Source: a virus (taxonomy: Duplodnaviria; Caudoviricetes). Taken from it: a DNA stretch of 42,481 nucleotides. Under the pieces are notes generated by a model, which worked only from the letters and a program-made list of their open reading frames with translations, had not been told where the DNA came from and did not search any database. Positions 257 through 42,063 of this stretch are shown here, one piece after another. The first letter of the stretch is position 1. Each line of letters starts with the position of its first letter. The DNA lies in the IMG/VR virus record IMGVR_UViG_3300017655_000010, positions 1-42,481 of that record; one strand, written 5' to 3'. The position numbers and the translations under genes are program-made.

Positions 257-315
257 GGGCCTTGGTAGGAAGTCGCAAGAGATTTACGGGGTAGTTGAGG
301 TGCAGGCAACTGCAC

Positions 316-1347
316 CTAATCGGCTGCCCCCATGTTCAGCGCGTCCGCCGCTCCCCGCAGATTGTGCGGCGCGAGGTGGGCGTAGCGCATCGTCATCTGC
401 ACCGTCTGGTGGCCCAGCCACTCCTTGACCACCGGCAGGGCCACGCCCCGCTGCACGAGGCGGCTCGCGCATGTGTGGCGGCAGATGTATGGGACGAAGT
501 TAGGGTCGCCCATGAGGCCCATGTGCGCCCGCGCCCGGTCCCAGGCAGCCCGCAGCCACCAGTTGTCGTAGGGGAACAGAGGCGCCCCAGGTGCAGTAGA
601 CTGCACTCGTCGCGACACGATCTCCTTCACCCGCTTGGTCATGTAGACCGTGCGGGGCTTGTCGGTCTTGGTCTGCCAGACCGTGATGGTCCCCTCGCGG
701 AGGTTCACGTCGGCCTTCTTCAACCCGTAAAGCTCGGAGTTGCGGAGGCCCGTGTCGATCAGACATTCGACCACCTCGGCGGCGTCGTCCTTGCCCCACT
801 GGCGGAACAGCGCCAGGAGGACAGTCTCCTCCTCGCCGGTCAGCCACCGGATGCGGCCCACGGGCACCTTCTCGCGCTCGATGCGGGGCATCTCCAGGTT
901 GCCTCCTCGGGCCTTCGCGAAGCGCAGCACCTTGGACAGCATCGCCAGCCGCCCGTTGATCGTGGAGCTGGCCTTACCCTCGGAGCGGAGGCGCTCGACG
1001 TAGCCGTCCAGGAACCCGCTGTCGATGTGGTGCAGGGGCATGTCGTCCCCCACGTCCGCACGAACGCGGGCCATGAGCTGCCACGTTTTCAGCTCCCACT
1101 TGGTCCCCTTGTAGTACCGCTGGAAGGCGCGGTCGCAGGCGTCCCCGAACGTCGCCGGGGCGTCTCCTCCGGGTTTGCGCCCAGGCGTGGGACCGTTGGG
1201 CGATGAAAAAGCCCGCTCCTTGGCGGGCGCCTTCATCTCCTGTTCCCAGGCTTTCGCCGCTTCCTCCGAGGTGAAGTCGCGACGTTTGCGCTTGCCGTTC
1301 ACGAACACGTCGGCCTGCCACGAGGCCCCGCGTTGACGGATCGCCAT
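316..1347 (-). CDS. int: Tyrosine recombinase / phage integrase
   Basis: N-terminal arm-binding-like region, TGLRNSEL (Arg), TKT (Lys), YICRHTCASRL, WLGH...TMRYAHL (His, Tyr); lies next to att. Confidence 0.95.
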   Translation of the reverse strand: MAIRQRGASWQADVFVNGKRKRRDFTSEEAAKAWEQEMKAPAKERAFSSPNGPTPGRKPGGDAPATFGDACDRAFQRYYKGTKWELKTWQLMARVRADVGDDMPLHHIDSGFLDGYVERLRSEGKASSTINGRLAMLSKVLRFAKARGGNLEMPRIEREKVPVGRIRWLTGEEETVLLALFRQWGKDDAAEVVECLIDTGLRNSELYGLKKADVNLREGTITVWQTKTDKPRTVYMTKRVKEIVSRRVQSTAPGAPLFPYDNWWLRAAWDRARAHMGLMGDPNFVPYICRHTCASRLVQRGVALPVVKEWLGHQTVQMTMRYAHLAPHNLRGAADALNMGAAD

Positions 1348-1689
1348 TTACCCCTCCACGAGGTGAACCAACGAGTTGACGAAGCGGCGCCCTTTCGCCG
1401 TCAGGAAGGCGCACCTCTCGCGGGCGTCCACCTGACCGGGCCGAACCTCGATCAGCTCGTAGCCGGGCTTGCCCACCGGCCAGCCCTTGTCGGATAGCTT
1501 TGCGAACGCCCGCTCGGCAGAGCTTTTGCCCATGCCCAGGGTGGCGGCCACCTTCTGCTGTGTGATGCCCTCCTCCCGTGCGATCAGGAGGAGAGCGGCG
1601 GCATGTTGAACAGGAAGCTCTTGGTCGAGCTTACGCAGCTCCTCGACGAACAGGAACGCCCTCGTCAGAGGGTTTCGGGTGGTCGGCAT
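1348..1689 (-). CDS. MarR-type winged-helix regulator, candidate prophage repressor
   Basis: EGITQQKVAATLGMGKSSAERAFAKL helix-turn-helix and DARERCAFLTAKG wing motif; abuts the integrase. Confidence 0.85.
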   Translation of the reverse strand: MPTTRNPLTRAFLFVEELRKLDQELPVQHAAALLLIAREEGITQQKVAATLGMGKSSAERAFAKLSDKGWPVGKPGYELIEVRPGQVDARERCAFLTAKGRRFVNSLVHLVEG

Positions 1690-1900
1690 TGGTGCCCCTT
1701 GGGTTACGTAGCAGCCCCGCCCCGATAAGGTCGATCACCTCCGCTCCACAAGTGCAGTCTGACTGCACCGGAGCCCAAGACGCGATCACAGTCCAGCCAA
1801 GGAGGTTCACCTCCACGGAGCCGGGCTCACGGATGATTGCGAATTTCGGGTCGTTTGGGTAGCCACGGTTAAGGTACAGGTCCAGGCCGCAAATATTCAT
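1631..1900 (-). CDS. Hypothetical protein (overlaps MarR start)
   Basis: 89-aa ORF with AGGA upstream of the ATG; no recognisable family. Confidence 0.35.
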   Translation of the reverse strand: MNICGLDLYLNRGYPNDPKFAIIREPGSVEVNLLGWTVIASWAPVQSDCTCGAEVIDLIGAGLLRNPRGTNADHPKPSDEGVPVRRGAA

Positions 1901-1991
1901 GTCACGTCATCCTGACGGTAAGCACTACCCGTTGGTCACGGTTTGGTAGCTATACGTTCTATTTCTTAACGGCCTCTTGACGGTGCGTGTT

Positions 1992-2087
1992 CTACGCCTT
2001 GCCCAGGTATGCAAAAAGCAGCCACAGGTAGGCGCCGAAACCAACGACGCCCACCACCGTCTCCACAATCCAACGACGCCAGCTCAC
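1992..2087 (-). CDS. Small membrane peptide (31 aa)
   Basis: GTG start overlaps the upstream TGA (GTGA); reads VSWRRWIVETVVGVVGFGAYLWLLFAYLGKA. Confidence 0.5.
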   Translation of the reverse strand: MSWRRWIVETVVGVVGFGAYLWLLFAYLGKA

Positions 2088-2409: not shown

Positions 2410-2480
2410 ACCGCGACCGCAGGTGCAGTCGGCTGCACCTTTGGTTTCGGCCCCTCGTCAGGGGGCCATCGTCAGGCGGC
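2410..2480 (-). ncRNA. Hammerhead ribozyme HHR-1 (type I; extra U after A9)
   Basis: GCCGC-CUGACGA-U-GGCCCC(CUGACGA)GGGGCC-GAAA-CC..AGGUGCAG-CCGA-CUGCACCU..GG-UC/GCGGU; predicted cut between 2415 and 2414. Confidence 0.8.
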
Positions 2481-2481
2481 G

Positions 2482-3294
2482 TTACGAGATCGGGTCAGTG
2501 ATGACCGGCGTTCCGTCCTTGCGGAACATGAAGTTACCCATGTGCATGTCGGGCCACGCGGAGTGCCAGGGCACAGTCTCCGCCGTGCGGTTCTCGGGAG
2601 GCTCCGCATGGATGCGCTTGCGGATGTCCCGCACAAGGCTGGTCAGCTCCGGGAACATGATGACCTCGTGGTACTCCTCGTAGCGTTCGGCCTCGAAGTT
2701 GTACCGCTGCGACCACCCCTCGATGGCCTGCTCCGTCAGGGTCGCAAGCATACGCTCGCGCGTCCCACGCAGCTCCGCCTTCCACTGGTAGACGCAAGCC
2801 TCCAGGCGCTCCATCAGGGCCGCGCAACGCCCCGTGTCGTCCACGAGGAGCATCTTGATGCGCGGGACGTGCGGCCCCGTGTAGGTGCCAGACACCACGG
2901 CATGAGCCCAGATTTTATACTTGTCGTCAGACTTGGCGGACACCTTCCACACCAGGTTTCCCTTGCCCCAGGCAACCCCGAAGGCGCCATCCCCCAGCCG
3001 CTTCCAGCCCTTGGCGCGAAGGCGCCGCGTCAGGGCGTCCATGTCGGCCACCCGCACGACGCGCTCACCGTCGCACCACGCATCTCCAGCGCGGCACAGC
3101 CGCTCCTCCCGGCTCAGGGTGGAGGGCGTGACGCCAGAGTTACGTGTGCGGGGCGTGGTCGGTTCGATTGCCACCGCGCCAGCCGCGCGTACCGCGTCCC
3201 CGAACTCCCGAGGGGCGGCGTTCTCCTTCCGCACCAGGGCCGGGTCGATGCCCGGAAGCTGTGCCAGCGCCAGGAACGGATTAACACCCATCAT
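2482..3294 (-). CDS. T7 gp0.7-like Ser/Thr protein kinase
   Basis: LGDGAFG glycine loop, VWKV lysine, DMHMGNFMF catalytic loop and PVITDPIS, closely resembling the T7 gp0.7 kinase domain. Confidence 0.85.
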   Translation of the reverse strand: MMGVNPFLALAQLPGIDPALVRKENAAPREFGDAVRAAGAVAIEPTTPRTRNSGVTPSTLSREERLCRAGDAWCDGERVVRVADMDALTRRLRAKGWKRLGDGAFGVAWGKGNLVWKVSAKSDDKYKIWAHAVVSGTYTGPHVPRIKMLLVDDTGRCAALMERLEACVYQWKAELRGTRERMLATLTEQAIEGWSQRYNFEAERYEEYHEVIMFPELTSLVRDIRKRIHAEPPENRTAETVPWHSAWPDMHMGNFMFRKDGTPVITDPIS

Positions 3295-3356
3295 TCTACA
3301 CCTCTATCGCGTGCGTTTGCGGCGCTCCCACTCATGGGACCGCACGGGCGTTTTGA

Positions 3357-3420
3357 TCCCGCGACCATCGGTGCAGCGGACTGCACCTAGGTTTCGCCCT
3401 TACGGGCTCGTCAGGCGGAA
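3357..3420 (-). ncRNA. Hammerhead ribozyme HHR-2 (type I, canonical core)
   Basis: UUCCGC-CUGACGA-GCCC(GUAA)GGGC-GAAA-CC-UA-GGUGCAG(UCCG)CUGCACC-GAU-GG-UC/GCGGGA; predicted cut between 3363 and 3362. Confidence 0.9.
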
Positions 3421-3662
3421 AGAGTGCGGAGGCGGTAGCGCAGGGCGTCCACCTCCCGCTGCGCCCGCTCCCGGACGTGGGAGGGAAAGTTGAAACGCTT
3501 GGCCTCCGCGAGGCGGTCCACCCACAAGGCCAGCTTGGCGCTCACGCGGAGGGCCTCGCGGCGGGCTTGAGGCACCCCTAGCGGGCGGGCCTTGATGTCC
3601 CCGCCCACGTCAGTAAGGGCGCGGAACAAGTCCATCGCCCCCTTGAACTTCTTCCGGCTCAT
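3411..3662 (-). CDS. Hypothetical early protein (83 aa, start MSRKK)
   Basis: ATG overlaps the upstream stop (ATGA) and follows a GAGG RBS. Confidence 0.65.
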   Translation of the reverse strand: MSRKKFKGAMDLFRALTDVGGDIKARPLGVPQARREALRVSAKLALWVDRLAEAKRFNFPSHVRERAQREVDALRYRLRTLSA

Positions 3663-4289: not shown

Positions 4290-4842
4290 TGAAGCATCCT
4301 CTTGCTTAGTCGCTTGGTGCAGTTGACTGCACCCAAAGGCACGGCCTTTGCCGTACCTGGAGCGATCCCATGGGTGGGACCGTCCAGGCGCGGGAAGGGT
4401 CGCGTTAGATGAAGGAGACGGCCACGGGCGACGAAACCGCCATGACCGCATCTTGCTTGAAGCGGCGCTTCCATTCCGCCGCAACGTTCCGCACCGCGTC
4501 AGCCTGCGCCGCGCTGTGCATCACCTCGACAATCAGCGAAGGCTCGCGGATCGGGCGCCCCGTGGCGCTATCCATCCACCCACCCTCGCCGTGCAGGACC
4601 GTGAAGCCGTCCGGGAAATGCTGCGCCACCACATCGGAAATGAAGCGGTCCACAGCGGCATCCCGGACGGTTGCCTGCCGCTCATCCACCGCGCCATCGG
4701 GGCGCCGCGCGACATGCTGGAGCGGGATGCGACGGCCCATGTAGAGGCGCGTCACCGTGTCCAGCGCGAAGGCGGGCGCCTCACCGATGGCGGGAGAGAC
4801 AAACGTGGCGTTGTCCAAAGGCATTGAAGCATCCTCTTGCTT
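4284..4842. repeat. 24-bp duplicated translation-initiation region (4284-4307 and 4819-4842)
   Basis: AGGCATTGAAGCATCCTCTTGCTT occurs twice and contains RBS plus ATG on the minus strand. Confidence 0.9.
4405..4824 (-). CDS. DUF3574-like protein, candidate SAM lyase (T3 gp0.3-like)
   Basis: FPDGFTVLHGEGGW...REPSLIVEV...WKRRFKQDAV pattern; 139 aa from MPLDN; early position. Confidence 0.65.
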   Translation of the reverse strand: MPLDNATFVSPAIGEAPAFALDTVTRLYMGRRIPLQHVARRPDGAVDERQATVRDAAVDRFISDVVAQHFPDGFTVLHGEGGWMDSATGRPIREPSLIVEVMHSAAQADAVRNVAAEWKRRFKQDAVMAVSSPVAVSFI

Positions 4843-4846
4843 GGTT

Positions 4847-4900
4847 GCGTTTCGCGCTTGCTCAAGGCGCTCATCAGTCGGCTTAGAGCTACCGAGACGC
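4847..4900 (-). ncRNA. Hammerhead ribozyme HHR-3 (type III)
   Basis: GCG-UC/UCGGU(AGCUCUAA)GCCGA-CUGAUGA-GCGC(CUUGAGCAA)GCGC-GAAA-CGC; predicted cut between 4896 and 4895. Confidence 0.88.
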
Positions 4901-4954
4901 GGGGCGCCGAAGGTGCAGTTGACTGCACCCTCGACACTCCCACCAATGGGACCG

Positions 4955-5731
4955 TTAGGCCAAACCGCAGGCCCGGACGAAAGCGTCGAAGTCCATACCG
5001 AACTTCTGCGCCATCTCCTCCAGGCGAGCCTTGGCCGCATCCCGCTCCCCTTGCGTGGCGCCCTTCTCATACAGGCCCCACACCTTCCGCGCCCTGTTCT
5101 TGGTCGCGCCGTCCACCGGCTTCGCGCCGCCCGGCTGCTCGGCCTTCTGTTCGGCCTTCGCGCCCGCCTTCTGGCCCTTCGCCTTGGCAAGCTCGGCCTC
5201 CAGCGCCCGGATGCGCTCCAGGGCCTCGGCCAGTTGCTCGCGGAGGATTTCCGCCTGAGACTTCTTCTTCGCCTTGGCGCTGGCGCCTTCGCCCTCGCCG
5301 CCTTCGCTGCCATCCTCGCCCTCGCCTTCCGGCGCGGGGTTGGTCGCCTTCTTCCACTCGTTGATGAACGCCAGGGCGCCATCCACCGAGTATTCCTTGC
5401 GACCAAGGAGACGGCCTTGCCCTTCCGCCCACTCCTTGGCGGCCAGGAAGTCATCCCAAGCGGCGGCCAGCTTCATCAGCCGCGCCCGCCACTCCTTGGA
5501 AAACTTAAAGTTGTCGTCGCACCACGCCCCGAAGGCGCCCTTTTGGCCGCTCAGGATTTCCTTAGCGTCCAAGAGGCTTGCACCCACGGAGCGGAAGGCG
5601 TGGAGAGTGTCCAGGCCCGCGCCGCTCGCCTTCGCCAGCCAGACATTCACCTCGGAAACGAGGTAGTCCAGCGCGGCGCCGCTGTTGCTGCCCGTGTTGG
5701 CGTTGGCGTCGGCGGTGTTGCAGTCAGTCAT
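4955..5731 (-). CDS. First early gene: DUF3102-like N-terminal domain, acidic linker/coiled coil, DUF2786-like C-terminus
   Basis: GASLLDAKEIL..GAFGAWCDDNFKFSKEWRARLMKLA pattern; C-terminal GATQGERDAAKARLEEMAQKFG. Confidence 0.65.
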   Translation of the reverse strand: MTDCNTADANANTGSNSGAALDYLVSEVNVWLAKASGAGLDTLHAFRSVGASLLDAKEILSGQKGAFGAWCDDNFKFSKEWRARLMKLAAAWDDFLAAKEWAEGQGRLLGRKEYSVDGALAFINEWKKATNPAPEGEGEDGSEGGEGEGASAKAKKKSQAEILREQLAEALERIRALEAELAKAKGQKAGAKAEQKAEQPGGAKPVDGATKNRARKVWGLYEKGATQGERDAAKARLEEMAQKFGMDFDAFVRACGLA

Positions 5732-6032: not shown

Positions 6033-6061
6033 GATTTAGTCCCACCAATGGGAGAATGCAA
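6033..6061 (-). promoter_or_regulatory. Host sigma70-type early promoter with a family-B operator in its spacer
   Basis: TTGCAT-N17-TAAATC with upstream A-tracts; the spacer contains TCCCATTGGTGGGA. Confidence 0.7.
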
Positions 6062-6245
6062 TAGGTTTTTTGCGTCCCATGACGACTTTTTTCGTGAGCC
6101 TTTGATTTCAACGGTTTAGCGGCCATCAGGGCGCCTCTTGGCGTGTCACATGGCAGCCTGATGCGCCCGCATATGGGAGCGATAGGGGCGCCGCATGGGC
6201 TGGCCGATAGGCTGGCCGCGTTGGTGCAGTTGACTGCACCTGTAG

Positions 6246-7155: not shown

Positions 7156-7176
7156 TGGGTGCAGTCAGACTGCACT

Positions 7177-9741: not shown

Positions 9742-9995
9742 CACAGCGGCTCCCCGGTAGGTGCAGTTGACTGCACTTCCGGCTCCGCGACAGCCCACAC
9801 GCCGAGGATGACAGCGGAAAGCTCCGGCCCGGTGCGCTTGAGGCCCGCCGGGATGGGAAGCGCCGCGTCGGTGCGGACGTTGACATAGGCCACCCCGTCC
9901 AAGTCGCGGGGGCCGAGGACGTTAGGCTGACCCTCGATGGCGGCAGCTACCGTCTCCAGGGGGCCATTCCAGAGGTTGTCGAAAGGTTCAGGCAT
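9741..9995 (-). CDS. Hypothetical protein
   Basis: 84 aa, GAGG RBS, coupled to terS. Confidence 0.65.
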   Translation of the reverse strand: MPEPFDNLWNGPLETVAAAIEGQPNVLGPRDLDGVAYVNVRTDAALPIPAGLKRTGPELSAVILGVWAVAEPEVQSTAPTGEPL

Positions 9996-11268: not shown

Positions 11269-11615
11269 CAGTCGAACTCGCGGCTCGACACGACCAGGGT
11301 ACGTGCAGCCGACTGCACCACAGGGGCCGCCGAAGTGCCGCTGCGAAAGCGGACCAGCGGGAGGCCGAGGGGGAGCCGGATGTCGAGGAGGATCAGCCGC
11401 CCGGCGCTGGCCTGAATGGAAACCTCCATGCCGCTCTGGTCGAACACGTTGAACCAGGCGGCCCCGTCAGCGGAAGCCTGAAGGGTCAGCGCAGCGGCAT
11501 CCCACGCGGACGGCATGAGGATGCTCAGGAGGACGCGGTTCTCCACCGCGAACGCCCCCGAGGTGGAGGCGCCGCTGGAGAAGGAGACGTTGGTGCGGGA
11601 GAAGCGAGGGTTCAT
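11268..11615 (-). CDS. Hypothetical virion-associated protein
   Basis: 115 aa; MPSAWDAAALTLQASADG motif; AAAGGA RBS. Confidence 0.7.
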   Translation of the reverse strand: MNPRFSRTNVSFSSGASTSGAFAVENRVLLSILMPSAWDAAALTLQASADGAAWFNVFDQSGMEVSIQASAGRLILLDIRLPLGLPLVRFRSGTSAAPVVQSAARTLVVSSREFD

Positions 11616-14226: not shown

Positions 14227-14256
14227 GTCCTTCTTGGGTGCAGTCTACTGCACCTG

Positions 14257-17200
14257 TCAGCGGTTGACTTTGGTACGGGCACGGAGGAAGTCCTCGTCCC
14301 GCATTGCCTTCCGAAGCGCCGGGATTTCCCGGTGCAGCTCCGCCATCGCAGCCAAGCGGTATTCCCCGAGGACACGCCGAAGCACGTCCACGCGGGAGCC
14401 GTCATGGTCGAAGGTGCCGTCCGTCGCGCGGTTCCTGTAGGTGTCGGACTTGATGACCTTCTCCAGGCTCTCGGAGAGGGTCCGCCCGTTCCGCTTGATG
14501 GTCCCCGTCAGCTCCAGGTAGCGGTCGTAGGCGCTCCGCCCGGTGATGGGCGAAGTGTAATCCCGCATGTCCACCGGACCGTACTCGGGGGACGGAGGCC
14601 GGATGGAGGCGCCGTGGATGATGAGCTGCCGGGCGATCTCGTCGTGGACGTTATCCTGGACCGTGTGGCGCCACTCCGGGGTGTTGGGCTGCTGCCCGCC
14701 CTGGTGGACACCCTTGGCGATGGGGGAGATGAAGCTCGGCCCCCAACCCGGCGGGACGTGGATGATCTCGCCCAGGATGTTCCGCTGCGGGTCCACGTCC
14801 TGCGAGAGGCCGGGCGTCTTGGCCCGCATGGCGTCCGCGATGGACCGCACCTCGCGCAGATGCGGGTCGTCTCCGACAAGCTGGTTGAGGGCGGACGGCA
14901 CGAAGCTCCCGGCCACGCCCCACACGAACCGCTCGCCGCGCCGCTCGGGCTCCGCAAGGGCTCCCAAAGCCCGCGTGAGGCCGGACAGGTAGGACTTGCT
15001 CTGGAGGTTCCGGGCGAGCGCCACGGTGGCATCCATGGCGAGCTGCTCGAACTCACGCTCCCCCGCGAACCCGGACACCTCGGCCATGTCTGCGGCGAGG
15101 CCGAAGAACATCCCGAACGGGTCCAGGCGGTCGAAGGCGCGGTACTCGACCGAGCCGTCCTCCTTGGTGATGCGGAAGGAGTAGGGACGCCACCCCGTCT
15201 GCATCAGCTCCTTCTTGGCCTGCGGGTCCGCCGGGCCGCCGCCCGTCACCGTGCCGTCGAAGGCGTAGGTCATGGCCGTGGCCCACAGCGCCCCGCCGGT
15301 CGCCATCTTGGCAGCCGCAGCGCCCCGTGCCTCCGCCCCGTTCCGGCCCAACAGATCATTGCGGAACTGCGTCCGCAGCATGTTGAGGCCAGGGGTGCGG
15401 TCAGCCGCGAACCGGATGATGTTGGTCGGGGTGCGGATGAACGGCAGGATCAGGGTCAGGCCGGGGTGGTTGCCCGCGAGCTTCTGGAGGCTCTCGCCCC
15501 AGGTCGGTCCCCCGGTGAGGGTCTGGGCCTGGAGGTCGGAGGAGAACGTCACCTCACGGGCGGCGCGGATGTGCCGGTCGTCGAGCGCCTGCCCCGTCAC
15601 GGGATCGAACTTCCCGCGCAGAGAGCCCTCGGCGTGTTCGGCCACCTTCTTCACGTTGAGGCCGTACTGAGAGAACCCCTCCCGCAGTCCTTCGGCCCGG
15701 ATGCGGGACCGATAGGTGAGCTGCTTGAAGAACTCGTCCTCCGCCATCAGGAAGCGCGACGGCATACGGATCATCGTGCCCAGGCCGTCCACCACCAGGG
15801 CGGATACCGGGTCGATGGAGGAGGCCGAAGAAGGCGTCCCCAGGCGGCGCGTAGTGATGGCGCTGCGCTGCTCCACCGGGAGGTGCCCAGGGTCCAGCAA
15901 GGTGTCGCCCATACGGAGCGCCTTGGCGGCGGTCCTTGTGGCGTCCACCAGGGACATCGCGATGCCCGCGTACTGGAGCGCACCCTCGGTGAACTCCTTG
16001 CGTCCGCCCGGAGAGGCGATCCGCACGGCCCCTGCGATCATCCGCTCGGCGGGCTGGAGGATCGTGGTCAGGGAGTTGGACATCATGTTGACGGCGTGGG
16101 TCTTGGGACCGGAGAGGACCGAGTTGATCCAATACTCGTTCACCGCCCCGATGGCGTTACGGACCCAGCCGCCACGCACCACGTTGTTGAACGCGGTGAG
16201 GTCGCCCGAGGCCGCCACCTTCGCCGCCATGCGCTTGATCGCATCCTCGCCGCCCTCGAAGAAGGCGTCGGCGCCGTGCTTGAGGAGCGCGGGGTCGAGC
16301 TTCGACGGGAGGCGCATGGAGTTGAGCGCCCGCGCCACATTCGTCTGGATGCCCTTGTAGGCAACCTGGACGTTGGCCGCCAATTCGACGTGGCGCTGGA
16401 ACTGGTTCATCAGCTCCACCCGCGTCTTGTAGCCAGCCGTCGCGGTGCCGGTCGGGTCGTTGATCGCCTCCGCCAGTCGCCGGGTCTTGTCGTGGACCGT
16501 GGCGAGCATGTCGCGATAGACGAGCAGCTCGGCGTCGAGGTTCTTGGTGGTGCCGTGGATGGACGACATCCGCTGCCAGAACAGGTCCGGGTCGTCGCCC
16601 AGCACGTCCGCCAGCCGGTCGGCGTTCTTCCGCACATCCTCCAGGGAGCGGACGGGGAAGTCCCCACCACCTGGTTTCCCGCCGATGGCCTTGTCCAGCT
16701 CCTCCCGATAGACAACCCGGAGGCTGTTCATCATGGAGGCGATGTCCTCGCCGCTCTCGATCAGGTCGGTGCGGATGCCCGAGATGGACCGCCCCTGTCC
16801 GAACCCCGTCTCGCGGAGGTTCTGCTGGACGACTTCCCGCAGCCCCGCATCGTCCACCTCGATCAGCTTCGGGGCGGCGTTACGGTGCGGCGTCGGGTCC
16901 GCCGTGGGGTTGGCCTTCACCTCCGCCGCCGGGCTGTCCGGGTGCGGGCTAGAGCCGCCCTGGAGGTCCAGCTCGGGCTGGTCGGGGCTAGGTGCAGTTG
17001 ACTGCACTTTCTCCTCGGCCTTCCCGCCTGTGGGAGCTTCCGGTTGCGGCTGCGCCCGGCGGTCCTGAGCGAGGATGTCCACGGGGTCCGCAGGACCGCC
17101 CTTGGGGGCCGCCTTGTCCAGCTCGTCGGCTGCCGCAGCGGTGGCCGCCTTGTCGCCCTTGCGGGCCGCCCGGAGGAGCCCCAGGCCCCGGATCAGACCG

Positions 17201-25467: not shown

Positions 25468-25706
25468 AGTGAGATTTCCTTGTGAGGGGGTTCGGATCGA
25501 ACCGTCAGTCGTCCGGGCCTCTCACCACTTCCACGCCGCAAGGTTGTCGCCCGCAGGCGGCCAGGGGGTTTGCGTGTGGGGAGAAGGATACCGGCAGCGA
25601 ACTGCCGTCGCCCTCCGATGCGCTGTGCGCGGGGAGGAGCGGCTGACGCGGCTCACACAGGAAAGGTGCAGCCGACTGCACTTTGGACAATCGGCTGCGG
25701 TTGGGG

Positions 25707-25901: not shown

Positions 25902-26710
25902 TTGGTCACTCGCACATTGAGGACCGGCTTGGCGGCGAGCTTGCGCTCCACCTCGGCACGGTACTGAGGGTCGTTGCGGTAGCGCGGATCGGACATGGCC
26001 TTGACCACCTCGGCCTGGGAGCCGAAGCCGTCCGCGCTGGGGGCCGTACCGCCGCCGATCAGGGTCGGACGGTTGCCCACCGTGGCGATGTAGCGGGAGT
26101 GCAGGCCGCGAACGGCCAGCGCCATAACCTCCACGTCGCCCTGGTTCACGGCTGCGTTGTAGGCCCGCAGCTCGCGCTCAGAGAGGTTCGACAAGGCCCA
26201 ATCGCGGACCTTGGTGAACACCTCCTCGCCGCCCACTTCCTGGAACAGGCGGGTCTTGACCTTCTCGGCAGCCGCTTCCCGGCCCTCGATCCAGCCGTCC
26301 ACGAACCCCTTCGGGAGGCCAGCCTTCGCCAGCTTCTCGTAGGTTTCGGCGGACAGCTTGCCCTTGGACAGGTACTCCTCGGCCACCTCGTCGGCGCTGA
26401 CGCCGCGCTGGGACAGGATGAAGTTGGCGTCCTCCTCGCGGAGGTTGCTCGGGTCGGGCAGATGCGGCGGGATCGGCTCGGGGGCCGTCTGCTGCTGCGG
26501 AGCTTCCGGCGCCTTCGGGGCACCACTCAGCTTCTTCTCCAGCTCGGAGTAGGCTCGCGCCAAGTCCTCCGGGCTCTTGAACTTCTCGGGCAGCCAGCCG
26601 GGCCGCTCGGAAGTCTGGCTCTCCGGTGCAGTTGACTGCACCTGTGCGGGGGCCGCAGGGGCGGCGTTCGGTGTCGCCTCGGGGGCCGGGGCGGCGGTCG
26701 CTTCGGTCAT
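25898..26710 (-). CDS. Capsid assembly scaffold (T7 gp9-like)
   Basis: RPGWLPEKFKSPEDLARAYSELEKKL, VGGEE, AMSDPRY. Confidence 0.93.
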   Translation of the reverse strand: MTEATAAPAPEATPNAAPAAPAQVQSTAPESQTSERPGWLPEKFKSPEDLARAYSELEKKLSGAPKAPEAPQQQTAPEPIPPHLPDPSNLREEDANFILSQRGVSADEVAEEYLSKGKLSAETYEKLAKAGLPKGFVDGWIEGREAAAEKVKTRLFQEVGGEEVFTKVRDWALSNLSERELRAYNAAVNQGDVEVMALAVRGLHSRYIATVGNRPTLIGGGTAPSADGFGSQAEVVKAMSDPRYRNDPQYRAEVERKLAAKPVLNVRVTK

Positions 26711-29073: not shown

Positions 29074-29670
29074 TCAGGCGCGGGTTGAGCCCGTCCAGGC
29101 GTAGGAGCTGACCTTCGGGGCCACATCCAGCGCATACTGGACGGCGTTCGGGTAGTCGTTGACGACCTTGATGGAGAACACCTCGTTGTCCAGGGCGCCC
29201 TCCGAGGAGTGCCCCCCTGCCCGCTCGACGCCTGGCTTGGAGACGTGGACGGTGATGCCGTCGTCCTCCGCGATGGCGTCGTACTCGTTGGGGAACCGCA
29301 TGTCGTCCGTCACCACGGCGACACCCATGTCCCGAAGCTTGTTGGCCTTCACGCGGAACATCTCCACCCAGAAGTTGGAGCCCATGCAAGCGCGGCCCCA
29401 TTCGGTGCCGAGGGTCTGCATGGCGTGGCGGGTGGTTGCGCCGCCGAGGTACGGGTTCGGGGCCTCCTTGAGGTCGCCCTCAATGTATCGCTCGATGTCG
29501 CCTGCGGGGCACCCCACCTCGACCAGGAGGGCGCGGATCATCGCCTTCAAAGGTGCAGCGAACTTCACCGTCTGCCAGCCGAAGCCGCCGAGGGCCTTGG
29601 CGAGGGTGGTCTTTCCGCTCTGGGCGGCGGGGGCGTAGAGCCCCACGAGGGGGGCGCGGCGCTTCTGCAT
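29074..29670 (-). CDS. Deoxynucleoside monophosphate kinase
   Basis: AQSGKTT P-loop, FAAPLK, RHAMQTLGTEWGR, DDMRFPNE, HSSE. Confidence 0.9.
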   Translation of the reverse strand: MQKRRAPLVGLYAPAAQSGKTTLAKALGGFGWQTVKFAAPLKAMIRALLVEVGCPAGDIERYIEGDLKEAPNPYLGGATTRHAMQTLGTEWGRACMGSNFWVEMFRVKANKLRDMGVAVVTDDMRFPNEYDAIAEDDGITVHVSKPGVERAGGHSSEGALDNEVFSIKVVNDYPNAVQYALDVAPKVSSYAWTGSTRA

Positions 29671-31190: not shown

Positions 31191-31786
31191 GATGGTTCTC
31201 CGATGTGTTGGGCCTCGGCGGCAAGGATCGCCTCTCCCTCCGCGTCGTAGAGGAAGGAGACGAAGGCGAAGCGGCGACCAGAGGTGACGGGGCGGACAAG
31301 GTGCAGTTGACTGCACTCGAACAGGACGGCGGTTCCGGCGGGCGGCTTGAGGCTCATGCCCAGCTCGGGAAGCTCCAGCTCGCCGCCCTCGAAGTCGTCG
31401 TTGAGGATGACCGAGAGGGCCACCTGACGATGCCGGGTACCGGGGTACTCGTCGTCCCGGTGGGCCTTGAAGTGGCCTCCAGCGGCGCTGTCGTAGGAGC
31501 CCACCAGGAGCCGCTCCAGGCGGGTCAGCTCCCGTCCGAAGGCTACCCTAGCGGCGGGCAGGACGCGGGCCTGTAGCTGCGCCAGGACCACCTTGCCGAC
31601 GAACTCGGTCGGGTCCAGGAGGAGGTCCGAACGGCTCTTGACGGAGCGGTCCAGAACCTCCCATGTCTTGCCGTCCGCGCCCGGCTGCATGAAGCCGCTC
31701 TCGCGCACCTCACCGATGCCGTGCAGGGACCGTAGGCCGAGGCAGAGGGTGGGCGTGAAGGCGCCCGGAATGACCAGGACCGTCAC
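31187..31786 (-). CDS. 2OG-Fe(II) oxygenase
   Basis: HRDD (HxD), LNDDFEGGEL, LHLVRPVTSGRR; GTGA overlap start. Confidence 0.9.
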   Translation of the reverse strand: MTVLVIPGAFTPTLCLGLRSLHGIGEVRESGFMQPGADGKTWEVLDRSVKSRSDLLLDPTEFVGKVVLAQLQARVLPAARVAFGRELTRLERLLVGSYDSAAGGHFKAHRDDEYPGTRHRQVALSVILNDDFEGGELELPELGMSLKPPAGTAVLFECSQLHLVRPVTSGRRFAFVSFLYDAEGEAILAAEAQHIGEPS

Positions 31787-31953: not shown

Positions 31954-32390
31954 CGCCGCCGCTCCCGGATGCGGAGGCCCCGCAGGATGCGGAGCGCCCG
32001 CTCGGGCTCGATGACGAACCACTCTCCACGAAGGCGGCAGTCCCGCAGGACGTGATGAACAGCCGCCTCGGCAGCGTGATAGTCGGTGAAGTGGACTGCA
32101 CCAACGAGACGGTAACGGGAGTGGGGGGACCAAGTGTTGGCTGCGGCGAGCCGCCGAGCCGGATCAACAGCGCGGCCCACCTTAGCGTTGCCAGGGTAAG
32201 CCGGATGAGAGAGGACATAGAGGTATCCCTCAGTGGGTGTCGGCCCAGGTGCGGCCTTTCTCGAACTGGCCTGCGAGCGGACAGCGGAACCCGAAGCTCT
32301 TTCCTGCGACGTGGATCGCGTCTGCCGCCGCTTGGCCGACTTCATCGGCAATCTCGGGGCGAACCTCGATCTGCCATTCATCGTGGACAT
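31950..32390 (-). CDS. T5orf172/GIY-YIG-like domain protein (start uncertain)
   Basis: YLYVL...KVGRAVDPARRL...EAAVHHVL...GEWF. Confidence 0.65.
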   Translation of the reverse strand: MSTMNGRSRFAPRLPMKSAKRRQTRSTSQERASGSAVRSQASSRKAAPGPTPTEGYLYVLSHPAYPGNAKVGRAVDPARRLAAANTWSPHSRYRLVGAVHFTDYHAAEAAVHHVLRDCRLRGEWFVIEPERALRILRGLRIRERRR

Positions 32391-34753: not shown

Positions 34754-36432
34754 CAGAACTCTCCGTCTACGCTCCCGAAGGTGGGAGCATCATCGCGCAT
34801 GAAATCCAGGCTCACCTCGCGGAGGCGCCCCGTCTCGCGGTCGTACTCCAGGTTGCAGGCGATACCCGTGTCCCCGGTGAACCGCATCTTGAGGACGCGG
34901 AGCGTGGTGATGTTCTTGGTTTTCTCGTCCTGCTGGTCGCGCTCGGCGCCGATCACGCAGTCGGAGAGCTGGGCGATGGAGTGGGAACCCCGGAGCTGGG
35001 ACAGCGAAGTCTCGGCGCCCTGCTCGTGCCCCTTGTCCCCCGCCGGGCGGCGAAGGTGAGACACAATCAGCATTCCGCAGCCCAGCTCTTGGACCAGGGT
35101 ACGGAGCTTGGTCATCAGAACGTCGATGGTCTTGCGCTCGTCGCCGTCCTCCATGCCCGACACCACAATGGAGAGGTGGTCGAGGATGATCCAGCCGCAG
35201 CCACAGGACTGCACCAGGAACCGGATGCGGTTGAGGAGGTTGTCGCCCTCGGTCGAGCCGAAGTGGTCGTACAGGTGCAGTCTACTGCACCCTCCGATCC
35301 GCTCGAAGGCTTCCCTTCGGGCCTGCTGCTCCTCCTCCCCGAGGTCGTCCCACGGGGTCATGTCCAGGTGGATCGGGCGGGACAGCTCGATGCCGATCAG
35401 GCCGTCCAGGGTGCGGTCGTTGCCCTCCTCCAGCATCAGCATCCCCACCGTCTCGCCCTCCCGCAGGAGGTGGTGGGTCAGCTCGCGGACGATGGCCGAC
35501 TTGCCGACACCGGAGCCCGCCGTGAAGGTCCACAGCTCGCCCCGTCGCAGGCCCATGGTCTTGTCCTGGAGGCCCTTCCACGGGAGCGGGACCGGGGTGG
35601 CGGTGGCCTGCTGCTTCTTGGCCTTGTAGGCTTCCCACAGCTCCTCGCCCCCGACGATCCCGTCCGGGCGCCAGGTCTTGGCTCCCCAGATGGCGTCGAT
35701 GACGAGCTTGCCTTGGCCCGCCTTGAGGGCGTCGTTCGCGTCCTTGAAGCCAGGTATCCGGGCCACCTTGACGCGGCCCACAGGGAGCAGCGGGGCGCAC
35801 TCCTCGACGGCCTCGCGGCCCACCTCGTCGTCATCGAAGAACAGGACGATCTCCTCGAACCCGAGGAGCCACTCCATTTCCTTCTTGATGTCGCGCTTGG
35901 CGCCGCCCGCCCCGTTCTTGACGGAGACGACAGGCCACTTGTTGTCCTGGAGCTGGCTCACCGTGAGGCAGTCGATCTCGCCCTCACAGATGATGAGCTT
36001 CTTGCCCTTGTCCCTCCAGCGGTGCTGCCCGTAGAAGCCGAGCGCCGCCTTCGGGTCGCCCAGGAAGGTGAAGTCCTTGTTGCCGAAGCGGACCTTCTGC
36101 GCCACCACCCGCCCGTTGGCGTCGTGGTACTGCGCCACCTGGACGGCCTGCCCCTTGAAGTCGTCGCAGAGCTGGTAGCCGAAGAACTTACAGGTGTCCT
36201 CTTTGATCCCGCGCTTGGTCAGCGGGCCGAGATACCCGTCAGTGATGAGGTCTTTCGTCACGGCTCCTCTCTTGGGGGCGGACGAGGCCGAAGCCCCGTC
36301 GCCGGGTTTCCAGGTGTCGCAGGCGAAGCAGTAGGTGTGCCCGTCCGAGTAGAGGCTGTTCGCGTCGGACGAGCCGCACTCCTCGCATGGGACGTGCTGG
36401 ACGAACTCGCTCTCGTCAGTTGCCGAGCGCAT
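34753..36432 (-). CDS. Primase-helicase (T7 gp4-like)
   Basis: CEECGSSDANS...CFAC zinc finger, EGEIDC toprim, AGSGVGKS, ILDHLSIV, LRGSHSIAQLSD. Confidence 0.97.
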   Translation of the reverse strand: MRSATDESEFVQHVPCEECGSSDANSLYSDGHTYCFACDTWKPGDGASASSAPKRGAVTKDLITDGYLGPLTKRGIKEDTCKFFGYQLCDDFKGQAVQVAQYHDANGRVVAQKVRFGNKDFTFLGDPKAALGFYGQHRWRDKGKKLIICEGEIDCLTVSQLQDNKWPVVSVKNGAGGAKRDIKKEMEWLLGFEEIVLFFDDDEVGREAVEECAPLLPVGRVKVARIPGFKDANDALKAGQGKLVIDAIWGAKTWRPDGIVGGEELWEAYKAKKQQATATPVPLPWKGLQDKTMGLRRGELWTFTAGSGVGKSAIVRELTHHLLREGETVGMLMLEEGNDRTLDGLIGIELSRPIHLDMTPWDDLGEEEQQARREAFERIGGCSRLHLYDHFGSTEGDNLLNRIRFLVQSCGCGWIILDHLSIVVSGMEDGDERKTIDVLMTKLRTLVQELGCGMLIVSHLRRPAGDKGHEQGAETSLSQLRGSHSIAQLSDCVIGAERDQQDEKTKNITTLRVLKMRFTGDTGIACNLEYDRETGRLREVSLDFMRDDAPTFGSVDGEF

Positions 36433-36652
36433 AGCGCGTGTATTTGCGCCCGGTGATCGGATGCTCACGACGCAGACGACGCACCCGAACCCCGGCCTGC
36501 TCCAGGTCGCACACCCGGCGGGCCAGCGTGGCGCTCGTGATGGAGTAGTCGGACATCGCCTCGCGGGCGGAGATGCTCCCCGTCCGTTCGATGTGGTCGT
36601 GGACCAGGAGCGCCTGCGGGGACAGGAGGTAACGCTGCTTGGAGGACAGCAT
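36416..36652 (-). CDS. Small winged-HTH protein
   Basis: GSISAREAM...LARRVCDL...YTRY. Confidence 0.75.
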   Translation of the reverse strand: MLSSKQRYLLSPQALLVHDHIERTGSISAREAMSDYSITSATLARRVCDLEQAGVRVRRLRREHPITGRKYTRYALGN

Positions 36653-36702: not shown

Positions 36703-37127
36703 CAGTCGCGGCGTTCGGCCCACCAGCTCCGCACGTCGAAGCTCGGACACGCCTTCGCCACGCCGGGGAAGTCGCGATGGCCCAGCACTTCGGCGCCGGG
36801 GTAGCGGACGAGCAGCTCGCGGATCAGCGCCTCAAGTGCAGCGAACTGCACCTTTGCGAAGTCGCCATCCGGCTTGCCCTTGCTGTCCACGCCGCCGACC
36901 ATGCACACGCCGATGGAGTTGGCGTTGTGGCCCTGGACGTGGGCGCCCGGCTCGCTCTCAGGGCGGCCAGGGTGGACGGTGCCGTCCGTGTAGATGACGT
37001 GGTGGTAGCCGATCTTTCGGTAGCCGCGCTGCCGGTGCCAGTAGTCCACGTCTTTGACGGTGACGTGGCGACCGTTGGGCGTGGCGGAGCAATGCACCAC
37101 GATTTGGGAGATGGTTCGGGGGTTCAC
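36702..37127 (-). CDS. N-acetylmuramoyl-L-alanine amidase (T7 lysozyme gp3.5-like)
   Basis: IVVHCSAT, IGYH, GAHVQGHNANSIGVC, GHRD, KACPSFDV. Confidence 0.95.
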   Translation of the reverse strand: MNPRTISQIVVHCSATPNGRHVTVKDVDYWHRQRGYRKIGYHHVIYTDGTVHPGRPESEPGAHVQGHNANSIGVCMVGGVDSKGKPDGDFAKVQFAALEALIRELLVRYPGAEVLGHRDFPGVAKACPSFDVRSWWAERRD

Positions 37128-38310: not shown

Positions 38311-38511
38311 TCAGATGTGGGAGGAATTGGGCGTGATCGAGCGGATCAGGCCGGTGATGTCGTGGCCCTCGTCCAGGAGGTCGCGGACCAGGGAACGCGG
38401 CAGGCTTCCGCCGTTACGCAGGATGATGACTGCGCGGGCCAGAGGTGCAGGCGACTGCACTTCGGCCTCGGTACGGGCCAGCTCGGAGATTGCGGGCATT
38501 GCTGCCTCCAT
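38311..38511 (-). CDS. Hypothetical protein (start may be 38499)
   Basis: Directly downstream of a phage promoter. Confidence 0.6.
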   Translation of the reverse strand: MEAAMPAISELARTEAEVQSPAPLARAVIILRNGGSLPRSLVRDLLDEGHDITGLIRSITPNSSHI

Positions 38512-39172: not shown

Positions 39173-39173
39173 G

Positions 39174-39435: not shown

Positions 39436-39469
39436 GAAGGGCCGGTGCAGTCTCCTGCACCAGCCCCTC
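39436..39469 (-). terminator. Long hairpin after RNAP built on a family-A site
   Basis: GAGGGGCTGGTGCAG-GAGA-CTGCACCGGCCCTTC; weak U-tract. Confidence 0.4.
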
Positions 39470-39492
39470 AATCCTCCCGTAGGTGGGAGCAA

Positions 39493-42063
39493 TTAGGCAA
39501 AGAAGTAGTCAGACTTGCGGATCAGAGACACGTCCAGGTCGCCCTTAGCGGGCGGCGTGGGCAGCATGTCGATCTCCCCCTCCGGGAGCTGGTCCAGCAT
39601 GTCCAGGTAGAACTCCACGATAGGGTCGAAGTCCGTGTAGAGGCGGACGAACGCCTCCTTGAGGCACTCGGCCATCAGCTCCACCTTCGCCGCCGGGGCG
39701 CCGTAGCTGTCATGCACCAGGGCGTACTCGGTCAGGCCCCGCTCCTTCGCCAGGACGACGAACATGCGGAGCGCCGTGGCGTCCTGCGAGTGGACCCAAT
39801 TCGGGGCGATGCCCTGGGCCTGCGCCCGCTTGTCCACGTCCAGCCCCACCGTCGAGACGACTGGCATGATGATGTGCCCGTCGATCATGGTCTTGACGCG
39901 GTGGGCCTCCCACTTCCGGTACGCCTGCTGCACCAGGAAGCCGTCCGCCGTCCGCCAGGAGACGGGCAGGCCGAGGCCAGCCACCACCTTCGCGCACGCC
40001 TGGAGCCAGTCCATGCCCACGCGGGCGGCCTTCACCGTCTCCCCGATGGCCTGCCACACGAGCGGCTGGAGGAACAGCGTGGCGTCGAACATGCACCGCC
40101 GCGCCTCCACGATGTCGTTGCCAGCGTAGAAGGGGTTCGGGGCGCCCTTCTCGATGCGCTCCATGGCGGCATCCTCCAGGAACTCCCGGCAGGAGAACGT
40201 GGTGGAGCCGTAGGGCAGCGTCATCACGGGCCGCTTGCACAGCTTGCGGTCCAGCCCGAACGCCAGCCACCGCTCCGCCATCATGCGCGGGTTGATGCCC
40301 CGCTCCTTCCAGAAGCCGAGCAGCCGGTCGAGGTGCATAATGCGCCCATTTGTGGGACCATCTGGACGCAAGAACTCCTTGGCCAGCTCACCCGCCAGCT
40401 TGGCAACCGTCGCGTAGATGTCCGAGGGCAGCTCTCCCGGCAGGAGGTTCACCGCCGCGCCACCCACCGGATCGCGCAGAGCCGAGGAATAGTGCTGGAG
40501 GCCATTGCACGATCCATCAAGGGCCACCGGGAGGGACGACACAAAGCCCCAGCCGTGGTCCCGGAAGGCCGCCCACTCGAAGCAGAAGGCGAGGAACTGC
40601 CAGGGCTTGTCGGCCTTGGTCCAGAAGTCGAAGCCAGGCCCCCACGGGTCGGCGGCCACGGCGCGGATCGCCTCCTCGTTCGCCTGGGTCCACTTCACCC
40701 GGTCAAGTAGACTGCACTTATCCACCCCGTAGTGGTTGGCCCCCGAGATGGCGAGCCAGTCGGCAGCCTTCTGGTCCACGATGGGATAGCCCCGCCCGAA
40801 GGTCAGGAGGGCCTTCACATAGTCAGGCCCCTGCGGGTTGAGGACGGCGGGCAGCGGGTAGAGGCGGCCACGAAAGTCCATCTGGTGCGGGAAGTAGATC
40901 AGCCTCCCCTGGAACCGCTCCGCAAGGCTCACCGCTTTGTGAACCTGGAGGCGCTTCCCGAGGTTCTTCCGCTTCTTGGCGTGGGCCTTGGCGGCGCTCC
41001 GCTTCCACGCCTTTTTCGCATCCTCGTTATGCTCCGCCTCGGGCGGGAATGGGGGGATTTCCGGGTCGCGCTCAGGCAGCCCGGCGATGCCCCGCTCCGT
41101 GTCCAGGGCCTCCCGGAGGACTTCCAGCACCCGGTCGTTGATCCGCCAGGGGGTGTCCTGCACCGCGTTCACGGCGGTCAGCACCCGGCTCAAGTCCTGG
41201 TTCGCCAGCTCCTCCAGGGCGGCATCGCTCCAGGTCTTGACCAGCCGCAGGCGCTTGAACAGGCCCGAGTGATATCCCCCCTCGAACGGGTCAGACCACG
41301 GCTTGGGCGGCACCAGCGAGGGCATGAGGGACGGCGCCACCATGCCAGCCGCCTTGCACACCTCCTTCATCCGGGCGGACGCGGCCTCGGACAGCTCCAG
41401 GACGTACTCGGTCTTGGACTTGCCCTCCCGCACCAGCACCAGCTTGAACAGGCCGGTCGCCTCCCGAACGATGTCCAGGAGCTTCATCCCGACGTGGAGC
41501 TGGGCGGCGGGCGTCCACTCCCCCCGGACGTTGGCCTTGCGGGCGAACTTGCGGGCGATGGCGTGGCGCTGCTGCGGCCCGGAGTGTTCGTCCAGCTCCG
41601 CCATCGTCACCTTGAACAGCTCGCGGTTCTCCTTCTTGAACTCCCTCATCCACAGCTCAAGCTCGATGCCCCGGCCCACGTTCCGGGCCACGGCGGTCAG
41701 CTTCGGGGCGTCCCCGCCGGTCAGGTCATTCAGGACCGTGCGGAGGGCGATGTAGGCCGCCTCCTTGTCCCCGCAGATGGCCACGGGCGGGAGGGCGGTG
41801 TGCTTCGGCCCCGCCTTGCCAGACATCGCCTCGTCCAGGAAGGCCGTGACAGCCTTGGAGACAGGCTCCAGGAGGTGGCGCATCAGGTAGCGGGCGCCAG
41901 GGCTAGCGGCAGCTTCGCCGCGCTCCTCGGCCTGCTGCGCGGCCTTAAGGACACGATCCATCCCGCCGGTCAGCATCTCCTCCTCCAGCTTGATCTGCTC
42001 ATCCATAGGAGAGAGGTCAGAGGAGGTGTTCTCATGTGTGGGAGGAATAAGAGGAAGGTTCAT
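39493..42063 (-). CDS. Single-subunit DNA-directed RNA polymerase (T7 gp1-like)
   Basis: DFRGRLYP, DGSCNGLQH motif A, RKLCKRPVMTLPYG motif B, VHSQDA, VHDSYG motif C, YFFA end; start re-set to MNLP after AGAGG. Confidence 0.98.
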   Translation of the reverse strand: MNLPLIPPTHENTSSDLSPMDEQIKLEEEMLTGGMDRVLKAAQQAEERGEAAASPGARYLMRHLLEPVSKAVTAFLDEAMSGKAGPKHTALPPVAICGDKEAAYIALRTVLNDLTGGDAPKLTAVARNVGRGIELELWMREFKKENRELFKVTMAELDEHSGPQQRHAIARKFARKANVRGEWTPAAQLHVGMKLLDIVREATGLFKLVLVREGKSKTEYVLELSEAASARMKEVCKAAGMVAPSLMPSLVPPKPWSDPFEGGYHSGLFKRLRLVKTWSDAALEELANQDLSRVLTAVNAVQDTPWRINDRVLEVLREALDTERGIAGLPERDPEIPPFPPEAEHNEDAKKAWKRSAAKAHAKKRKNLGKRLQVHKAVSLAERFQGRLIYFPHQMDFRGRLYPLPAVLNPQGPDYVKALLTFGRGYPIVDQKAADWLAISGANHYGVDKCSLLDRVKWTQANEEAIRAVAADPWGPGFDFWTKADKPWQFLAFCFEWAAFRDHGWGFVSSLPVALDGSCNGLQHYSSALRDPVGGAAVNLLPGELPSDIYATVAKLAGELAKEFLRPDGPTNGRIMHLDRLLGFWKERGINPRMMAERWLAFGLDRKLCKRPVMTLPYGSTTFSCREFLEDAAMERIEKGAPNPFYAGNDIVEARRCMFDATLFLQPLVWQAIGETVKAARVGMDWLQACAKVVAGLGLPVSWRTADGFLVQQAYRKWEAHRVKTMIDGHIIMPVVSTVGLDVDKRAQAQGIAPNWVHSQDATALRMFVVLAKERGLTEYALVHDSYGAPAAKVELMAECLKEAFVRLYTDFDPIVEFYLDMLDQLPEGEIDMLPTPPAKGDLDVSLIRKSDYFFA

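Follow-up and report, generated by a model that had tools for sequence, protein, structure and literature searches.

A phage-private palindrome array in a T7-like prophage and an early 258-residue protein as its candidate binder

Twenty-five copies of a 16-bp palindrome, GTGCAG-N4-CTGCAC and close variants of it, are spread over a T7-like prophage that lies whole within a 42,481-nucleotide stretch of DNA (IMG/VR record IMGVR_UViG_3300017655_000010; hereafter the window). The array is real and private to the phage. It is likely to be a protein-binding lattice, for which comparison with related phages points to a named candidate binder, the 258-residue protein that the first early gene encodes (4955-5731).

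A palindrome array absent from the host

A pattern scan of the window returned 22 exact matches to GTGCAG-N4/5-CTGCAC, 20 with an N4 spacer and two with N5 (1752 and 7159). One hundred dinucleotide shuffles of the window gave a mean of 0.01 exact matches and a maximum of 1, in line with the initial annotation of this DNA, which had put the chance expectation below 0.01. Degenerate copies at 29553 and 32086 (one mismatch each) and at 40702 (two mismatches) bring the total to 25 sites, from int to the RNA polymerase (RNAP) gene, the same numbers and range as had been counted at first. Two further two-mismatch matches (22430 and 30519) are at chance level (mean 3.1). The 16-bp word originally described is present, but the motif extends beyond it, with gGTGCAGT-N2-ACTGCACy as the full consensus.

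The window corresponds to positions 40460-82940 of contig C10 in a 5.34-Mb host genome of 69.8% GC. Outside the prophage, these 5.3 Mb contain no perfect N4 copy and 13 one-mismatch copies. Across 400 genomes of the host's family, the 14-base core occurs in 12, with one or two copies each, at about the frequency of a reversed control. This rules out a generic host repeat, whether REP (repetitive extragenic palindrome)-like, uptake or Chi-like, and the initial reading, which had been staked on this point, survives.

The sites are more evenly spaced than random placement would give (mean gap 1.69 kb, coefficient of variation (CV) 0.57, P = 0.0025), as are those of the related phages G040, G042, G043 and G009 (gap CV 0.49-0.59, P at most 0.002). 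Their density is 2.8-fold higher in the early 7 kb, which enters first (P = 0.016). Fifteen of the 25 sites lie in open reading frames (ORFs), two of which are uncertain, and are read in all three frames; the other ten are intergenic (Table 1).

Sites are written into genes and turn over between relatives

The codons that make up in-gene sites have relative frequencies of 0-6% elsewhere in 12 major phage genes, GCA CTT TTA in gp12 being an example, which bears out an earlier remark that rare codons accompany the sites. The encoded peptides were also as first listed: VQSTAP in int, scaffold and gp16, VQSAA in gp12, and CSRLH, CSQLH, GAADCT and VQFAA. Alignment of orthologues, suggested at the outset as a way to trace the origin of the sites, revealed gap-free substitutions in gp12, helicase, amidase, RNAP and the T5orf172 gene, and sites that fall in variable linkers in gp16 and scaffold. 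G009, the closest full relative, has a site in the same column for five of eight alignable in-gene sites, and relatives with the N3 type of site described below mostly use positions other than those of the window.

Predicted hammerhead ribozymes have two intergenic sites (2423 and 3371), and in G047 one site, at the tip of their stem III. Relatives carry other hairpins at the same stem III position, which therefore appears to be a neutral slot. Together, the gap-free substitutions, the turnover of positions and the placement at hammerhead tips make it look as if coverage were the selected property, with sites placed wherever they are tolerated.

Three hammerheads are predicted in all, between the early genes on the minus strand (approximately 4843-4900, 3350-3425 and 2405-2485, with cores at 4877, 3414 and 2475), with similar predictions in G040, G042, G043, G044 and G047. 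The Rfam scan of the window returned tRNA only and made no hammerhead call. Hammerheads in such prophages have already been published (PMC3088659).

A 258-residue early protein as candidate binder

Three proteins had been put forward initially as possible binders. The comparative data favour the 4955-5731 product over the MarR-like regulator as well as the small helix-turn-helix protein, and the accompanying idea of a dimeric binder is supported, as a prediction. The 258-residue protein is, with good confidence, the probable binder.

Its structure model (pLDDT 85.7) is all-helical from residue 15 and comprises a helical domain of DNA-binding type (residues ~13-131), a linker, a predicted coiled coil (159-187) and a small C-terminal helical domain (208-254). 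In a structure comparison against 48,161 chains, the top match was the DNA-binding domain of Spo0J (1vz0; Z 8.0, root-mean-square deviation 3.4 A over 87 residues), and ParB (6s6h) scored Z 6.0. The protein matches Pfam family DUF3102 (PF11300) with E 0.0018 and 18.9 bits, below the cut-off of 24.4 bits, which its 52% identical homologue P0007 passes with 28.4 bits; it is the only DUF3102 match in the host genome. An Atlas structure comparison gave a match to a DUF3102 cluster with a TM score of 0.78 by target, under the Atlas naming bar.

No ParB CTP-binding domain was detected in the protein by Pfam at E 0.1, and the GxxRxxA-type motif, a mark of that domain, is absent from it. A PHROGs scan, which covered 47 chosen ORFs among 246 called mechanically in the window, identified no ParA ATPase. 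A profile search of the protein against PDB sequences yielded coiled-coil noise only, and tblastn against cultured phages gave no match. Its gene contains no GTGCAG-type site, the nearest being 26 bp past the stop. The gene is the first of the early region and lies beside one encoding a DUF3574/S-adenosylmethionine (SAM)-lyase-like protein. T7 and T3 have anti-restriction genes at the matching position, and Pasto has ArdA at the corresponding one.

Array and gene co-occur and co-vary in relatives

We collected 16 distinct related records that carry the gene, counting the duplicates L143/G043 and L476/G044 once and excluding a record identical to the window. At least three sites were present in ten of the 16. 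These were GTGCAG-N3-CTGCAC in G040 (20 copies), G042 (25), G043 (21), G044 (10), G047 (7), L471 (4), L472 (5) and L473 (8), and a GTCAAG-type site in G045 (7) and G046 (3). Four records have a single site (L475, a perfect N4 copy in 2.3 kb; L142 and L474, degenerate; L477, poor). Each of the seven temperate T7-like genomes that lack the gene (Pasto, Lo5R7ANS, RHEph01, RHEph21, YIMV22061, HTVC019P and G306, from the host's genus) contains 0-2 poor matches.

The form of the site varies with the helix of the protein. KEWRAR..RKEYSVDG pairs with N4 (window and L475), DKTWRAR..KRKWSVDG with N3 (G040, G042, G043, G044, G047 and L471-L473) and RQWRA with GTCAAG-N4-CTTGAC (G045 and G046). The latter two phages have RNAPs that are 33-34% identical and place the homologue of the 258-residue gene after RNAP; this distance and the other gene position make them one partly independent case. 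The inference first drawn from the window, that selection acts on the DNA, is supported.

TerL-based control loci (37 of 80, at least 8 kb) had neither the gene nor a GTGCAG array, and we did not count them because such loci cover just part of each genome. G449, with three N3 sites around a T7-like integrase at the end of the record and no gene, is uninformative. Homologous prophage genes occur in two cultured soil bacteria, Azorhizobium caulinodans ORS 571 (AZC_3573) and Chelatococcus sambhunathii DSM 18167, whose contig carries an N3 array.

The same word in unrelated phages

The identical 16-mer was found in 101 stretches of viral contigs, where many single matches may be due to chance. Only one of 38 viral records tested with the 16-mer had a T7-like RNAP, ruling out a T7-specific motif. 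Seventeen records with the 16-mer, chosen for several sites or for completeness, were examined closely; a DUF3102-like protein is common to 11 of them, and one other is G009.

In Mu-like phages the palindrome lies inside the DUF3102-like gene, where it encodes VQSTA. It is perfect (7/7) in 11 of 41 distinct proteins, compared with 80 of 3,000 control windows, in a search that used two patterns, one of which favoured the VQSTA type. The palindrome changes on both arms, to GTGCACTCGAGTGCAC and GTGTCCCCGGGGACAC, with VQSTA, VHSSA and VSPGT as the peptides, and the GTGTCCCCGGGGACAC variant is accompanied by an S-to-R change in the recognition helix (RRQVYSYI to RRQVYRYI). In a clade of ~100-kb phages, at least three related sites occur in 55 of 69 loci of at least 10 kb, against one of 69 for a control pattern, and the half-site has A with GWTKLK and C with GWTKLR (three proteins). 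DUF3102 proteins of Mu-like and other phages, which match the 258-residue protein weakly in sequence and structure, are paired with the same or related palindromes. They carry the site inside their own gene and come with 1-6 copies of it; the gene in the window lacks an internal site, and its array spans the genome. Genes of the Mu-like DUF3102 group whose internal palindrome has switched to GTGTCCCCGGGGACAC or GTGCACTCGAGTGCAC are present in L548, L551, L552, L555, L544 and L546 and constitute ready-made specificity variants. A model of the Mu-like protein gave weak helix-turn-helix matches only (Z at most 5.7).

Several observations weigh against the 258-residue protein as the binder. Foldseek searches with its model (PDB and BFVD) returned nothing at E 0.001 or better, and Z 8.0 to Spo0J is middling for a helical domain. 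By hhalign, the window family is linked weakly to the Mu-like family (74%, E 3e-5 when the alignments are deep; 2%, E 0.02 when they are shallow), and the two families have different recognition helices despite the identical 16-mer. A DUF3102-like gene went undetected in five of the 17 site-bearing records (G008, G015, G017, G020 and G031). In the record of G009, which stops within the early region, 17-18 sites are present and the gene was not seen. The helix of G039 is of the window's type, yet its 7.4 kb hold just 4-5 look-alikes with two mismatches, and in G041 (30.7 kb) the gene is present, its helix is changed (HRSWRAKIMK) and no array is detectable. The generalised site patterns were drawn from the same records in which they were counted, and, G045 and G046 apart, the array-bearing T7-like records form two clades and so are not independent.

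A proposed role for the array

Taken as a whole, there is about an even chance that the 25 palindromes serve as double-stranded DNA docking sites for dimers of the 258-residue protein, which would coat the phage genome and organise or shield it. The protein would be made first, soon after entry or induction, its N-terminal ParB-type helix-turn-helix would read one half-site, and its coiled coil would dimerise it. With no CTPase clamp domain it would not slide, so that many fixed sites would be needed in place of spreading. Dimers would occupy sites about every 1.7 kb. The coat might then mark phage DNA as self and organise or shield it during the lytic phase, the weakest step of the proposal, by compacting or bridging it or through a partner that the C-terminal domain recruits; repression at the few adjacent promoters would be a side role. 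If the 258-residue protein is indeed the binder, an organising or protective role is fairly probable.

The same protein and sites could instead act on transcription, as a repressor or roadblock of the KorB or stoperator kind. The protein would then dampen early transcription, restrain its own production or help to silence the prophage. This alternative is unlikely, but it is the main rival. A putative phage promoter, TAGGTYGCSCTACC(G/C)CA, occurs in seven copies on the coding (minus) strand (6253, 7140, 29035, 36687, 38524, 39400 and 42106) and is likely to be the promoter of the phage RNAP. The initial annotation had placed palindromes next to two terminal promoters; the adjacency at 6224 and 7159 stands, but the putative promoters number seven, and a site lies no more than 40 bp from three of them (6253, 7140 and 39400; P = 0.007). 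This enrichment fits repression, as does the presence in distant family members of sites inside or upstream of their own gene. KorB is a ParB-family repressor (PMC11790492), and the stoperators of phage R4 act at many sites (PMC10276819). A sigma-70 promoter placed by eye near 6060 was not found by a scan and was not used.

By contrast, 22 of the 25 sites lie away from putative promoters. No site in the prophage comes within 1.4 kb of the putative RNAP-gene promoter (42106-42120), which has been proposed as the switch in such phages (PMC10134795); the nearest is at 40702. In G009, whose genes run one way, asymmetric variants are found in either orientation (7 versus 5), and the cores of G040, G042 and G043 also lie both ways; the seven TCAA cores of the window all face one way. 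Even spacing and turnover of positions fit coverage better than control of particular promoters. We therefore favour a coat over repression: most sites are far from promoters and none accompanies the RNAP promoter, relatives show both orientations, spacing is retained although positions turn over, the host is free of sites, the gene sits at the anti-restriction position beside the DUF3574/SAM-lyase-like gene, and the DNA that enters first is the most densely covered.

It is improbable that the sites serve as operators for the MarR-like regulator (1348-1689) or for the HTH_39 protein (36416-36652). Both belong to bona fide DNA-binding families, both are present in G009, where the 258-residue gene was not seen, and MarR has been proposed to bind near the RNAP promoter in such phages (PMC10134795). 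However, the MarR helix of G041 is nearly that of G042 and L473, yet G041 has no array, and the MarR of G045 is very different, yet its array is related. Five named phages have a MarR match and no array. Pasto and YIMV22061 carry HTH_39 yet lack an array, no HTH_39 was detected in G045, and neither protein has a match in the unrelated phages that share the 16-mer. With 40702 as the site nearest to the putative RNAP promoter, the flanking sites expected of a MarR-type operator are missing, and a second motif in the early region is available to MarR. In G009 (C1:34321-34620), the MarR gene is apparently frameshifted with the array intact, which may be a sequence error.

The second motif, CGGTCCCA-N4-TGGGA, occurs at 1178, 2383, 3325, 4365, 4937, 5793, 6039, 29055 and 42330, mostly at early gene boundaries. 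GGTCCCA-N4-TGGGA has five exact copies in the window and none in the host, and may be a MarR operator or an RNA hairpin. Related words are found in G041, G045, G046 and G039; Pasto, RHEph01 and YIMV22061 have other dyads. We had considered GTCCCA-N4-TGGGAC and GTCTCA-N4-TGAGAC (G041, G046 and G039) as alternative specificities and dropped them because the second motif is in the window too.

Centromere-like or tethering sites, through which the 258-residue protein would position or segregate excised or replicating phage DNA, are very unlikely. The ParB-type core, a 16-bp dyad as in parS and NBS (PMC7383237) and a C-terminal domain free for a partner are compatible with such a function, and the missing CTPase domain, the lack of a ParA among the scanned ORFs, the dispersed rather than clustered sites and the integration of the phage speak against it. 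More remote still are RNA hairpins in transcripts, an alternative raised at first and suggested by the sites at hammerhead tips. It is disfavoured, since both strands lose pairing in common variants (the commonest in G009 has a C-T/A-G mismatch); furthermore, the stems are just 6-8 bp and hardly extend, the loop bases T..A are conserved with a phage-specific loop length, and the hammerhead position looks like a neutral slot. Recruitment or blocking of a conserved host protein, which might be suggested by the identical 16-mer in phages that differ widely in GC content and type, is just as improbable given no perfect copy in the host, background frequency in 400 related genomes, and a spacer and half-site that vary between phages in step with phage proteins.

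The prophage and its other features

All annotated phage genes are on the minus strand, and the PHROGs scan recognised integrase, regulator, terminase, tail, capsid, portal, DNA polymerase, primase-helicase, single-stranded DNA-binding protein and RNA polymerase. Copies of a 10-bp attachment (att) core, TTTTAAGTCT, at 114-123 and 42359-42368 mark the integration, which splits a host tRNA-Leu; the phage supplies its own tRNA-Leu(TAA) (134-220). The layout of early genes, MarR, integrase, att site and RNAP is that of LUZ100, Pasto and HTVC019P (PMC10134795), MarR-controlled temperate T7-like phages. Unlike the window, Pasto, HTVC019P and four other such phages have neither the 258-residue gene nor the array; LUZ100 was outside this comparison.

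One early gene (2482-3294) encodes a protein kinase-like product that resembles T7 gp0.7 (PHROG E 1e-11). The second early gene (4405-4809) encodes the DUF3574 protein, with a weak SAM-lyase match (E 0.006), possibly an anti-restriction protein. Other repeats were noted elsewhere. L144 (G039) has about six tandem copies of a 12-bp repeat, CCAGGTTCACCA, upstream of the early region (5330-5400), and the T7-like contigs L202, L209 and L210 repeat CCGAA-N3-TTCGG (six copies) or GCGAA-N3-TTCGC (four copies), with no homologue of the 258-residue gene within range.

Table 1. Palindrome sites, candidate binders and extent of the prophage in the window
Feature	Position	Strand	Remarks
T7-like prophage	114-42368	-	bounded by two TTTTAAGTCT core copies in split tRNA-Leu
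First early gene, 258 aa	4955-5731	-	candidate binder of the palindromes
MarR-like regulator	1348-1689	-	Pfam MarR_2, E 5e-7; rival binder, disfavoured
HTH_39 winged-helix protein	36416-36652	-	Pfam HTH_39, E 1e-16; rival binder, disfavoured
Site 1	300-315		perfect N4, immediately past int stop
Site 2	591-606		N4, in int (VQSTAP); position shared by G009, G042, G043
Site 3	1752-1768		N5, uncertain 89-aa ORF upstream of MarR
Site 4	2423-2438		N4, intergenic; stem III tip of predicted type I hammerhead
Site 5	3371-3386		N4, intergenic; stem III tip of predicted type I hammerhead
Site 6	4317-4332		N4, intergenic, past DUF3574 gene
Site 7	4913-4928		N4, 26 bp beyond stop of 258-aa gene
Site 8	6224-6239		N4, directly downstream of putative phage promoter 6253-6267
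Site 9	7159-7175		N5, past terL stop; directly upstream of putative phage promoter 7140-7154
Site 10	9761-9776		N4, 84-aa ORF (VQSTAP)
Site 11	11303-11318		N4, 115-aa ORF (VQSAA)
Site 12	14238-14253		N4, intergenic, between gp16-like and tail fibre genes
Site 13	16992-17007		N4, variable linker of gp16-like protein (VQSTAP)
Site 14	21309-21324		N4, gp13-like gene (GAADCT)
Site 15	23133-23148		N4, gp12-like tail gene (VQSAA); position shared by G009
Site 16	25666-25681		N4, intergenic, between scaffold and capsid genes
Site 17	26626-26641		N4, scaffold N-terminal linker (VQSTAP)
Site 18	29553-29568		one mismatch, dNMP kinase (VKFAA)
Site 19	31301-31316		N4, 2OG-Fe(II) oxygenase (CSQLH)
Site 20	32086-32101		one mismatch, T5orf172 gene (GAVHFT); position shared by G009
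Site 21	35275-35290		N4, primase-helicase (CSRLH); position shared by G009
Site 22	36836-36851		N4, amidase (VQFAA); position shared by G009
Site 23	38445-38460		N4, 66-aa ORF (VQSPAP)
Site 24	39445-39460		N4, RNAP stop on one side, putative phage promoter 39400-39414 on the other
Site 25	40702-40717		two mismatches, RNAP (CSLLD); one half-site, GTCAAG, is the G045 form

Discussion

Dispersed phage dyads of unexplained function are known; such an array in a T7-like phage, together with a candidate binder, appears to be new. The closest precedent comes from Cluster O mycobacteriophages, which carry more than 30 copies of a 17-bp dyad, TGTTCGGNNNCCGAACA, in and between genes and absent from the host; they were proposed to be sites for a dimeric protein, lie mostly away from promoters, and have a ParB-like gene among the candidates (PMC4351075). 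The window array belongs to this class, with dozens of genic and intergenic copies genome-wide and a host without them. It differs in sequence and phage group, and whereas no binder is assigned in Cluster O, a candidate in the window co-occurs and co-varies with the word.

ParB-parS, Noc-NBS and KorB-OB (PMC7383237, PMC11790492) likewise have a 16-bp dyad and a helix-turn-helix core, whose fold the model of the 258-residue protein may share, and ParB/Noc specificity switches through a small number of residues within the recognition helix and after it (PMC7383237), as is predicted here. The window system departs from these by lacking an N-terminal CTPase domain, and with it a predicted sliding clamp, by having no ParA among the scanned ORFs and by spacing 25 sites evenly over 42 kb of phage genome.

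A different precedent is mycobacteriophage L5, which reportedly has a repressor-stoperator system with many sites for one phage protein. Stoperators are asymmetric, oriented with transcription and mainly intergenic. The window sites, by contrast, show symmetry and no polarity, 15 of the 25 fall within ORFs, and the protein likely to bind them differs from the predicted immunity repressor. A temperate genome with numerous sites for a single phage protein is nonetheless what L5, Streptomyces phage R4 (PMC10276819) and, by our prediction, the window have in common.

The motif had not been recognised at first from any described T7-like phage, and our literature search likewise found neither the exact motifs nor a report of such an array in T7-like phages, although one T7-like prophage study outside the search may describe repeats. 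DUF3102 came up there in three unrelated papers. T7-like phages are among the best-studied viruses, and we know of no genome-wide protein-binding lattice in them. That codons in helicase, RNA polymerase and tail genes have been rewritten for a site every 1.7 kb indicates strong selection for something undescribed.

Tentatively, and with the odds against it, a clamp-less ParB-type protein, produced first upon infection, and a lattice of sites that the phage writes into its own genome may amount to phage chromatin, a transferable self-marking system that hides DNA from host nucleases, translocases or silencers; as part of the same doubtful claim, phages of the T7-like, Mu-like and 100-kb kinds, from different bacterial phyla, would each coat their own DNA with it. 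The natural N3, N4 and half-site variants provide built-in specificity controls, and the pairing offers a testable protein and site both for the large DUF3102 family, whose function is unknown, and for dispersed dyads that lack an explanation in other phages.

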